Shown here piece after piece: positions 27,352-29,458 of a stretch of 64,000 nucleotides of DNA; the stretch's first letter is position 1, and each line of letters begins with the position of its first letter. The DNA is from an uncultured Dehalococcoidia bacterium (GTDB lineage Bacteria > Chloroflexota > Dehalococcoidia > Lucifugimonadales > UBA3495): NCBI GenBank assembly GCA_964502995.1, contig CAZCZB010000010.1, forward strand, positions 2,364-66,363, given 5' to 3'. Both the position numbers and the translations under genes were made by a program. Under the pieces are notes generated by a model that saw only the letters and a program-made list of their open reading frames with translations, was not told the DNA's origin and searched no databases.

Positions 27352-28758
27352 CTAGCGGCCGGAGCCACCGCGACGATAATCGGGAGCCTCGATCGGCCAT
27401 TCGGTCACCACCAGTGGATCTTGCAAGCGTGAGGCTATCCGAGGACGGGTCGCCGCGATCTGTTCAATCTGGTGCGATGTCGTGATGATCGTCGGCAACC
27501 GTTCCTCGTAACGATAGCCGACAATCTGGAACAACTTGTCCTCCGCGAACGGAGTGCTCCGTTCAGCGCCCATGTCGTCGAGAACCAGGACATCGGCGGT
27601 GCGGATACGGTCCAGCAGGTCTTCATGAGTTATCGGACTGTCGGGCGCGAAGGCGGCCCGGAGGTAGTCCAGCAGGTCTGCAACCGTCGCGAAGAAAACC
27701 TCGTCGCCTCGCGCTTTCCGTTCTGTGGCGGCGGCGACCGCAAGATGCGTTTTGCCGACACCGTAAGGTCCGTGCAGGCTCAACCACCCATCCGGATTCT
27801 CGGCCCAACGCTGCACGTAGGATTTGGTTGTTTTCAGGCTCCTGCGCTGGTGGTCCGACAGTCCGCCGTTGCCGTCCACGTTGAAGGCGTCAAAGGTCAT
27901 GCGACGACGCATATTGGGGGGAATCGTGCCAATCATTCTGCCCGGCGCGTAATTGCCCCGGGCCAGTCGGTGCATTCGCCCGAACCCGTCGGGGGAGGCC
28001 AAACGGGTACGCAGAAAATCGTCCAGGTGGTTCGGGTCTCCCCGCAGCGTGATCACGGTGGGCAGACGCTGGGCGTGTCGTCCGGCCAGCACCTGAAACA
28101 GGCGCTCCTGGCCCCACGGGCTAACCGGACGAACTGGCAGGTCGTCCAATACCAGCAGATCGGCGTCCCTTACCTGCTCAAGGAGATCCACGAATCTCAA
28201 CTCGGCGTCATCGTCGAATCCGCCACGCAGGTAATCCAGCAGGTCGGCGACGGTTACGAACAACGCAGCGGCGCCGTTGCTGATCCGTTGATTCGCAATC
28301 GCAGCGGCCAGGTAGGTTTTACCGCTGCCGCTGGGTCCGACAAATGTGATCCAACCGTGCGGACGTTCGGCGTATTCGCGCGCTGCTCGGTAGGCCGCCG
28401 TGAAATTGGGGCCGTGCGACCAATCCGCGTCAGGCCCACCCGGGTTGGCGTTATCGAACGTCCATTGCCGAAGCGCCCCAAGGTTGCTGTACCGCTCCAA
28501 CGCCGCAATGCGCTGATCCCGGTCGACGTCCGACTCCTGACAGTCGCATGGAATCAATTTACCGAAATCGGGATGCTCCACCGGAACGGCGGCGGTCAGC
28601 CAACCCGCGCCGTCGCAGGACGGGCAGCGGTCAACCGCCGTTTCCGTCGGGAGCGTCGTCGGACTCCCACGGTAACCGTCCGTATCGCCGTCGATAGCTG
28701 TCCAGGTACCCCGTGCGGCTATCCGCCTCAGGATCGTACCCAGGCTCTCCATGGTCAT
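27352..28758 (-). CDS. DnaI/DnaC-like helicase loader with N-terminal Cys cluster and two tandem AAA+ modules
   Basis: CPSCDGAGW...CDC Zn-ribbon-like start. Module 1 has FDNANPGG, GPSGSGKT and LLVLDD. Module 2 has FDAFNVDG, GPYGVGKT and VLVLDD. Both modules contain VADLLDYLR. Only ATG 28758 or 28752 can serve as a start upstream of the Cys cluster. Confidence 0.8.
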   Translation of the reverse strand: MTMESLGTILRRIAARGTWTAIDGDTDGYRGSPTTLPTETAVDRCPSCDGAGWLTAAVPVEHPDFGKLIPCDCQESDVDRDQRIAALERYSNLGALRQWTFDNANPGGPDADWSHGPNFTAAYRAAREYAERPHGWITFVGPSGSGKTYLAAAIANQRISNGAAALFVTVADLLDYLRGGFDDDAELRFVDLLEQVRDADLLVLDDLPVRPVSPWGQERLFQVLAGRHAQRLPTVITLRGDPNHLDDFLRTRLASPDGFGRMHRLARGNYAPGRMIGTIPPNMRRRMTFDAFNVDGNGGLSDHQRRSLKTTKSYVQRWAENPDGWLSLHGPYGVGKTHLAVAAATERKARGDEVFFATVADLLDYLRAAFAPDSPITHEDLLDRIRTADVLVLDDMGAERSTPFAEDKLFQIVGYRYEERLPTIITTSHQIEQIAATRPRIASRLQDPLVVTEWPIEAPDYRRGGSGR

Positions 28759-29458
28759 GTCTTTGGTCTCTATCGCGTTGTGTTGTGTTGGAATCGGCTG
28801 CGGGTTTGCCTTCCTGCAACCACCTGCGCAGGATAGCATGAACGTAACCCCAGCTACGCACATTCCGGTCGGCAGCAATGGCGAATGCTTCGGCAATCCA
28901 GCCGGGCGGATACTCCTCCTCCGCGGCTTTGAGTTGCTCGGCCGTGCCGTGTCCGTATGTGCCGACATGCTCTTCGTACAGCGCGAATATGTTGGCCCGG
29001 GGCCGTTGCGGTGACGTCACCGCCGGAGTCTCCACGGCGTCAGAATCGTGAACCGTGGCCCCGAAAATCACCGATGGGTCTATCGCGGTTGCTCCCGACC
29101 GTTGCAGATATTCCCGCGCGCTCTGGTCGCTGACGAAAACCCTGATCTCGCCGCCAACTCGCGCTGCCGTCAGAATCCCCCGACGCATGGCGGCGGCGAG
29201 ACCGGCGCGGATTCCCGCGTCGTTTCCCAACCGGTTTGAACGACGCAACACCGCGTCGTCCAACAGTTCGTCAACCGAAACCGACGGTGGAGCGTCCCGT
29301 CGTGTGGGTTTGGAACTCAACAGGCCCGCCACCCGGAGCGAGACTTTCAACTCGGCTATGTCGTCGATGACGGCCAGCCATTCTCCCAGCGCAACGGCCG
29401 GCACCGGTACTCGCCGGGCATCCCGAGCCAGCGATTGTCTGCGCTCGGGGCCAGTCAT
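28631..29458 (-). CDS. DnaD-domain replication initiation/primosome protein
   Basis: NIFALYEEHVG......L.AAEEEYPPGWIAEAFAIAADRNVRSWGYVHAILRRW is the DnaD/DnaB_2 C-terminal domain pattern. The ATG sits directly after the dnaB stop. Confidence 0.75.
   Translation of the reverse strand: MTGPERRQSLARDARRVPVPAVALGEWLAVIDDIAELKVSLRVAGLLSSKPTRRDAPPSVSVDELLDDAVLRRSNRLGNDAGIRAGLAAAMRRGILTAARVGGEIRVFVSDQSAREYLQRSGATAIDPSVIFGATVHDSDAVETPAVTSPQRPRANIFALYEEHVGTYGHGTAEQLKAAEEEYPPGWIAEAFAIAADRNVRSWGYVHAILRRWLQEGKPAADSNTTQRDRDQRHDHGEPGYDPEADSRTGYLDSYRRRYGRLPWESDDAPDGNGG

Follow-up and report, generated by a model that had tools for sequence, protein, structure and literature searches.

In a 64,000-nucleotide (nt) stretch of DNA from an uncultured Dehalococcoidia bacterium (the window; positions 2,364 to 66,363 of contig CAZCZB010000010.1, assembly GCA_964502995.1), the genes for the replicative helicase DnaB, a DnaD-like adaptor and a DnaC/DnaI-type helicase loader with a duplicated AAA+ module lie in one operon, and the junction of the last two genes is read in two frames. 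We interpret this arrangement as the chromosomal helicase-loading module of a Dehalococcoidia bacterium of the SAR202 type, with a probability of about 85%. The cluster is tightly packed on the minus strand in the order rplI, dnaB, DnaD-like gene, loader gene. The loader gene (27352–28758), recognized by PF01695, PRK08116 and its homologues, encodes 468 amino acids (aa) from the ATG at 28758; a second conserved ATG lies at 28752 and the stop codon at 27352–27354. The 275-aa DnaD-domain gene (28631–29458, minus strand) was identified by PF07261, TIGR01446, phrog_186, an AlphaFold2 (AF2) model and Foldseek. It adjoins dnaB (29459–30844, minus strand; 461 aa; PF00772 and PF03796, DnaB_C E value 4.5e-92) without a gap, as the dnaB stop codon and the DnaD-like ATG are contiguous (TAAATG).

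The loader carries a single N-terminal Cys cluster followed by two AAA+ modules. The first-pass annotation of the window, made from the sequence and its open reading frames (ORFs), had quoted these motifs, and all of them were found: the four Cys residues (C45, C48, C71 and C73) and then two sets of lead-in (TFDNAN, 100–105; TFDAFN, 288–293), Walker A (GPSGSGKT, 141–148; GPYGVGKT, 330–337), VADLLDYLR segment and Walker B (LLVLDD, 201–206; VLVLDD, 390–395). Its assignment of both modules to the DnaC/DnaI type was borne out by profile searches, in which the best Pfam model, PF01695 (IstB_IS21; E = 8e-36), and the NCBIfam subfamily model PRK08116 each matched in two stretches; PRK08116 was the only helicase-loader model passed (199.9 bits, cut-off 189). 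Aligned against each other, the two halves were 42% identical over 144 aa (E = 3e-35). Sequence matches in the PDB (phmmer) comprised Escherichia coli and Aquifex DnaC (6qel and 3ecc), IstB, and Geobacillus and Staphylococcus aureus DnaI (2w58 and 5he8). In an AF2 model built on 144 homologues, with a mean predicted local distance difference test score (pLDDT) of 82.7, each module superposed on DnaI 2w58 (target template modelling score, TMt, 0.74) and on DnaC 3ecc (0.81) and 6qem, with TM scores of 0.65–0.82 overall in Foldseek. Sequence and predicted fold identify the gene product as a loader of the DnaC/DnaI type, in which a single Cys-cluster N-domain precedes the two AAA+ modules.

Both elements of this N-domain are strongly conserved. 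The four-Cys cluster (28540–28626, minus strand) is a probable zinc ribbon of a helicase-interaction domain: the CxxC...CxC pattern is invariant, the Cys residues are 92–100% conserved in every group and AF2 places two short strands there. In front of it lies the N-terminal helix MESLGTILRRIA (aa 3–14; 28717–28752, minus strand), a candidate helicase-binding element that is conserved across the phylum and whose DNA shows the wobble pattern of the loader frame at very low entropy; AF2 draws a helix at 6–14 with low pLDDT, and its confidence over the N-domain is only 68–79. The helix reads M(T/S)MESLG(T/A)ILRRIA in this clade and ME-x-LGDILKR, also written ME(S)LGDILKR, phylum-wide. The N terminus of DnaI has a similar form, ME-x-(L/I)G.

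The loader gene begins well inside the DnaD-like gene. The DnaD-like TGA is at 28633–28631, and the overlap (28631–28758, minus strand) measures 128 nt from ATG 28758 and 122 nt from ATG 28752, exactly the range given in the first-pass annotation. It holds the last 42 DnaD-like codons and the stop codon together with the first 42–43 loader codons, one base apart. The two ATGs had been put forward as the only start codons upstream of the Cys cluster; ATG 28968, TTG 28896, TTG 28878, ATG 28863 and ATG 28839 are also in frame, and what stands is that only the two are conserved. A longer loader ORF from ATG 28968 was rejected, because that start is not conserved and relatives carry stops just before the ATG pair; in four of them (L009, L021, L023 and L027) an in-frame stop lies 1–3 codons upstream. 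A later start that would avoid the overlap was rejected as well, as there is no ATG, GTG or TTG from 28752 to the Cys cluster, and the overlap is therefore unavoidable.

The same junction recurs across the phylum. An overlap of 44–146 nt was present in 93 of 95 DnaD-linked loci, many of them on single-contig chromosomes, and without exception the loader was offset by +1 from the frame of DnaD. By group, the overlap was found at all 63 clade-level loci (104–140 nt), all ten from other families of the order (44–83 nt), nine of ten from other orders of the class (77–86 nt) and ten of 11 from other classes (68–134 nt), and it was present as well in L083. Codon-position patterns show selection on both frames. 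Mean column entropy, computed on 44 distinct clade-level sequences at loader codon positions 1/2/3, was 0.51/1.24/0.66 in DnaD-only DNA, with the wobble at DnaD position 3, and 0.73/0.65/1.37 in loader-only DNA, with the wobble at loader position 3. Over the first 45 nt of the overlap the wobble was in the loader frame and overall constraint was stronger (0.24/0.24/0.57); over the remainder it was back in the DnaD frame (0.67/1.15/0.76). These frame switches show that the overlap is partitioned, its first part being kept for the loader helix and its second for the DnaD tail. The DnaD residues HGEPG in the first part and the loader linker in the second are passengers. In many lineages, both reading frames of the overlap are uninterrupted and subject to purifying selection. 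From the sequence comparison, we conclude that two-frame coding of the gene junction is genuine, old and conserved across Chloroflexota.

An RNA element was also considered as a cause of the junction's conservation and rejected (fold z-score −0.78, no Rfam match). Immediately before the first loader ATG, at 28759–28800 (minus strand), an A/C-rich stretch, CCAACACAACACAACGCGAUAGAGACCAAAGAC, codes for the DnaD linker and is unpaired in the predicted fold; 9 nt upstream of the ATG there is a GAGA with weak conservation. The A/C-rich stretch could serve as an unstructured internal ribosome landing site.

The product of the upstream gene is DnaD-like above curated cut-offs (TIGR01446, 31.9 versus 24.95; PF07261, 23.0 versus 22) and matches PHROG 186, 'DnaD-like helicase loader'. 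Its AF2 model (pLDDT 74) has a confident alpha/beta domain at 20–132, a disordered linker, a helical DnaD/DDBH2 domain at about 157–217 and a second disordered linker. The helical domain matched 2zc2 in Foldseek (TMt 0.70) and also DnaD 9a5c_B; for the winged-helix-like residues 20–132, a candidate DDBH1 oligomerization domain, matches to winged-helix repressors and a DnaD model were weak (E >= 5e-3). At the C terminus lies the tail motif YLDSYRRRYGRLPWE (aa 251–265; 28664–28708, minus strand), whose columns Y251 to E265 are nearly invariant and in which a helix is predicted at 249–259 (pLDDT about 81). It reads YL(D/E)SYRRR(Y/H)GRLPWE in the clade and KY(I/V)xGKYGH(L/M)VxR, at the very C terminus, in other classes, and throughout the phylum it is conserved as far as the stop codon of the DnaD-like gene. 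Such a conserved, flexibly tethered helix would suit a docking peptide, with the loader head, DnaB and DNA as candidate partners.

The two AAA+ modules are not equally equipped. With residue roles assigned from a study of E. coli DnaC (PMC8213410), the residues invariant or nearly so in 106 sequences are K147/K336 (Walker A), D205/D206 and D394/D395 (Walker B), R252/R444 (Arg finger) and R178/R367 (the Arg of the VPDLLDHLR segment). Module 2 (aa ~284–458 and the sensor II residue R462; 27385–27909, minus strand) keeps K336, D394/D395, the Arg coupler R440, the Arg finger R444 and R462, and has Ser428 at sensor I. Module 1 (aa ~95–265; 27964–28476, minus strand) keeps K147, D205/D206 and R252, with Arg239 at sensor I, Phe248 at the Arg coupler and the PDYR sensor II absent. 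The earlier description of two complete modules thus holds for the AAA+ core with its Walker motifs and Arg finger, but in this clade module 1 lacks sensor I, the Arg coupler and sensor II. Its sensor I position is Arg in 72 of 73 clade sequences and Asn in 10 of 11 sequences from other classes; its Arg coupler position is Phe in 71 of 73, and a clade-specific DDLP(T/V)RP follows its Walker B. All three are missing from module 1 not only in this clade but throughout Dehalococcoidia; in Anaerolineae-type relatives module 1 retains the Asn of sensor I and the sensor II motif PDYR. In E. coli DnaC, ATPase activity is abolished by mutation of any one of Walker A, Walker B, sensor I, the Arg finger and sensor II, and by charge reversal of the Arg coupler (PMC8213410). 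Because the sensor I and sensor II mutants lose activity, module 1 is probably an ATP-binding or structural partner that donates its Arg finger and hydrolyses poorly, with module 2 as the working hydrolysis site.

The tandem form is widespread. A full-length, stop-free tandem loader was found in 31 of 31 relatives from 13 families of the order. Full-length forms extend through the whole class, small genomes of 1.4–1.9 Mb among them, and into several other classes, for example in a Leptolinea metagenome-assembled genome (MAG). The survey of related genomes that the first-pass annotation had proposed thus found the tandem architecture both in Dehalococcoidia and in other Chloroflexota classes; the covalent dimer, called unusual there, is so relative to the loaders of model organisms, but is the norm within Chloroflexota. 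In a sample of the phylum, 197 of 301 genomes matched the loader at E<=1e-20. A library of 1.84 billion representatives held 531 clusters (50% identity) at E<=1e-30, and the close homologues came from Dehalococcoidia, the SAR202 cluster and Chloroflexi/Chloroflexota bacteria.

In a tree of individual modules, module 1 and module 2 sequences each grouped in a clade of their own (support 96/92 and 94/86, respectively), over Dehalococcoidia and three further families, which indicates at least one old duplication. Single-module forms were basal and close to the phage outgroup. Other Chloroflexota families (L110–L117) encode such forms, about 250–270 aa long, downstream of a DnaD-like gene. These loaders share the ME-x-L-x-D-x-LKR head and the Cys cluster, and at least one of them (L116) has a long overlap of up to 128 nt and keeps the KYxxGKY tail motif. 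At the other extreme, two metagenomic proteins, P0122 (845 aa) and P0123 (827 aa), carry one Cys-cluster head and four AAA+ modules, three of the module-1 type and one of the module-2 type, so that module number in the loader family varies between one, two and four. All of these relatives have the same single head. The loader probably goes back to an old duplication, within the gene, of a 'lead-in plus AAA+' unit behind a single N-helix/zinc-ribbon domain. Loader relatives of 550–650 aa also occur.

The genomic context supports a function in loading the chromosomal helicase. In every relative the loader holds the same fixed position after rplI–dnaB, and each genome has one DnaD-linked copy. 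DciA (PF05258) gave no match in this 90.8%-complete genome, with seven control genomes positive, and a homology search of the genome returned no second DnaC-like gene; the tandem loader is therefore the only recognizable helicase loader here. Loading of DnaB onto single-stranded DNA (ssDNA) by this protein is predicted, and supported, by its place after dnaB and the DnaD-like gene and by the lack of DciA or any other loader in the genome.

Homologous DnaD-like/DnaC-like gene pairs are found in phages. In the Bacillus phage PfEFR-4 (L109), gp37 (804–1550) and gp38 (1519–2322) belong to the same families (PHROG 186 and 50) and stand in the same order, and their 32-nt overlap has the +1 offset seen in Chloroflexota. 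In addition, gp38 has a CxxC...CxC head and an SNLG...TF lead-in. The phage pair differs in its single AAA+ module, its short overlap and its mobile context. Among 50,697 phage records, no tandem form was found, the 14 high-coverage matches spanning about 780 nt with a single module. Brezellec et al. (2016) proposed one domestication of phage dna[CI] in Chloroflexi and do not mention a duplication in their main text. Since the phage pair overlaps with the same +1 offset, the overlap may be a phage legacy, later lengthened and fixed.

Four other explanations of the locus were weighed. The source is a MAG of 183 contigs, and an assembly or sequencing indel could have created the overlap or the module fusion, a reservation that the first-pass annotation had itself attached to the overlap. 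However, the uninterrupted tandem ORF and the same-frame overlap occur at >90 independent loci, in dozens of independent assemblies, including closed, single-contig chromosomes and distant classes; conserved motifs lie in both frames, and the codon-position patterns show selection on both. The recurrence across independent assemblies and single-contig chromosomes excludes an indel artefact in this MAG, and we give that explanation practically no weight. It is also very improbable that the gene is an IS21-type IstB helper or part of a resident prophage replication module instead of a chromosomal loader. The best Pfam model is indeed IstB_IS21, the AAA+ core resembles that of IstB of IS21/IS5376 (5bq5 and 8q3w), and the phage gene pairs and the proposed domestication point to mobile relatives. 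Against this, the NCBIfam model of the IS21 helper, NF038214, scored 142.4, under its cut-off of 200. The neighbours of the loader are the DnaD-like gene and an ORF without a Pfam family, with no IstA or other transposase nearby, and its chromosomal place after dnaB is conserved, with one DnaD-linked copy per genome. The genome has no alternative loader, and the phage records no tandem form.

Programmed +1 frameshifting that yields a DnaD–loader fusion protein would account for a loader frame that is always +1 to DnaD and for an overlap far longer than translational coupling requires. The ATG pair at the loader start is invariant, however, with in-frame stops just upstream of it in several genomes; the DnaD frame is under selection to its own stop codon and ends in a conserved C-terminal motif; and we saw no conserved slippery or stop-shift site and no RNA structure, all of which makes frameshifting highly unlikely. 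The last alternative concerns the modules: both might be equivalent active ATPases, with six chains per DnaB hexamer and twelve modules arranged as a double layer or partly held as spares. The invariance of Walker A, Walker B and the Arg finger in both modules speaks for it, as do the sensor I Asn and PDYR kept in module 1 of the Anaerolineae type and the whole-chain Foldseek matches to the two-tier p97/Cdc48, although these are poor (TM 0.2–0.3, root-mean-square deviation >11 Å) and uninformative on the arrangement. On the other side, module 1 lacks three residues in this clade and in Dehalococcoidia whose counterparts E. coli DnaC needs for ATPase activity (sensor I and sensor II by mutation, the Arg coupler by charge reversal), and there is one putative helicase-binding head per two modules, the head being single in one-, two- and four-module relatives alike. 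Equivalence of the modules is therefore improbable, if less so than the other three alternatives.

Among characterized systems, DnaI of Bacillus, Geobacillus and Staphylococcus (2w58, 4m4w and 5he8) resembles the loader in having an initiator-clade AAA+ module and a DnaD-domain partner and, probably, in its N-terminal Cys/zinc domain for interaction with the helicase, and the loader modules fit its fold at TMt 0.71–0.77. The gene described here differs in encoding two AAA+ modules per chain and in standing directly after dnaB in overlap with a DnaD-like gene. A second adaptor of the DnaB(Bsu) type, as in the Bacillus DnaI system, was not seen here. With DnaC of E. coli and Aquifex aeolicus (6QEL, 6QEM and 3ECC), the loader shares Walker A and B, the Arg coupler, the Arg finger and sensor II, recognizable in module 2, and presumably a spiral assembly on DnaB and ssDNA. 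DnaC, in contrast, has only one module, preceded by a short helical N-arm, and binds 6:6, whereas the loader has a Cys cluster and two modules, the first degenerate. Loaders of the DnaC and DnaI type have one AAA+ module per chain; here there are two. For the stoichiometry, the DnaB6–DciA3 structure, in which DciA sits on alternate LH–DH modules of the DnaB hexamer (PMC13696075), offers a precedent of three loaders per hexamer, although DciA is ATP-independent and its fold is unrelated to an AAA+ loader, and we draw the parallel by inference only.

These comparisons suggest how the helicase-loading module might work. Three loader chains would supply six AAA+ modules, as many as the DnaC spiral contains, together with three helicase-binding heads per DnaB hexamer. 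Like DciA, the heads would occupy every second DnaB site, and the modules would form an ATP-dependent spiral that holds the DnaB ring open on ssDNA. The covalent link between modules would pre-form every second AAA+ interface; as both Arg fingers are conserved, we would expect the within-chain and between-chain interfaces both to be used. The DnaD-like protein would recruit the complex to the origin, its tethered C-terminal helix docking on the loader or DnaB. The overlap would couple translation of the DnaD-like gene and the loader, and loader head and adaptor tail would be inherited together. In its sharpest form, this model has the two-module loader fixing a 3:6 assembly with helicase, catalytic ATP sites (module 2) alternating with non-catalytic ones (module 1), the DnaD tail helix, whose code lies within that of the loader's N-terminal linker, docking on the loader head or DnaB, and phylum-wide dual coding locking both surfaces into one piece of DNA. 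We regard that form as tentative, and it is doubtful that all of it holds.

Several points weigh against the proposed loading module or its details. The loader falls below the equivalog cut-offs of both DnaC (PRK07952, 116.5 versus 357) and DnaI (PRK08939, 108.7 versus 228), and its N-domain gave no match to the Pfam model DnaI_N. The placement of module 1 relative to module 2 in the AF2 model is unreliable (predicted TM score 0.58). The canonical sensor I Asn is missing from module 2 too, which has Ser428 there. We infer the stoichiometry, which module hydrolyses ATP and what the DnaD tail binds, and the four-module relatives do not fit the simple count of three times two modules.

Most of what is known about bacterial helicase loading comes from E. 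coli DnaC (6:6), Bacillus DnaI with its partners DnaD and DnaB, the P protein of phage lambda and, more recently, DciA (3:6). A phylum with a naturally fused loader dimer, one head for two modules and one of these partly disabled, is a ready-made experiment on the number of heads and active ATP sites needed by a DnaB hexamer, and the one- and four-module relatives extend the series. The two-frame junction of 44–146 nt is among the more deeply conserved long gene overlaps that we have met in cellular replication operons. In the searchable literature, which does not cover most subscription journals, we came across no account of a helicase loader with tandem AAA+ modules or of this DnaD/loader overlap. 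The overlap also has a practical effect on annotation. Many close loader homologues have been given 373–443 aa by gene callers instead of about 465, with the DnaD-like gene at its full length of about 271–276 aa; evidently a later start was picked to avoid the overlap, and loader genes that are started too late lose the conserved N-terminal helix.

Some genomes hold further copies of the tandem loader. Extra paralogous copies were found in ten MAGs of Dehalococcoidia/SAR202 (L065, L071, L072, L074, L075, L077, L078, L080, L082 and L087); they are 55–59% identical to the window's loader, number up to four per genome and have no upstream DnaD-like gene. The seven ORFs flanking the paralogous loader of L078 gave no Pfam match. 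These copies may be part of an unrecognized mobile element.

At the downstream end of the operon, an ORF of 341–356 aa (26281–27351, minus strand) follows the loader gene directly; its TTG at 27351 abuts the loader stop codon, its first ATG is at 27306, and it matched no Pfam family at E<=0.001. At the upstream end, the cluster opens with rplI (30851–31309, minus strand), which encodes ribosomal protein L9 (PF01281 and PF03948).

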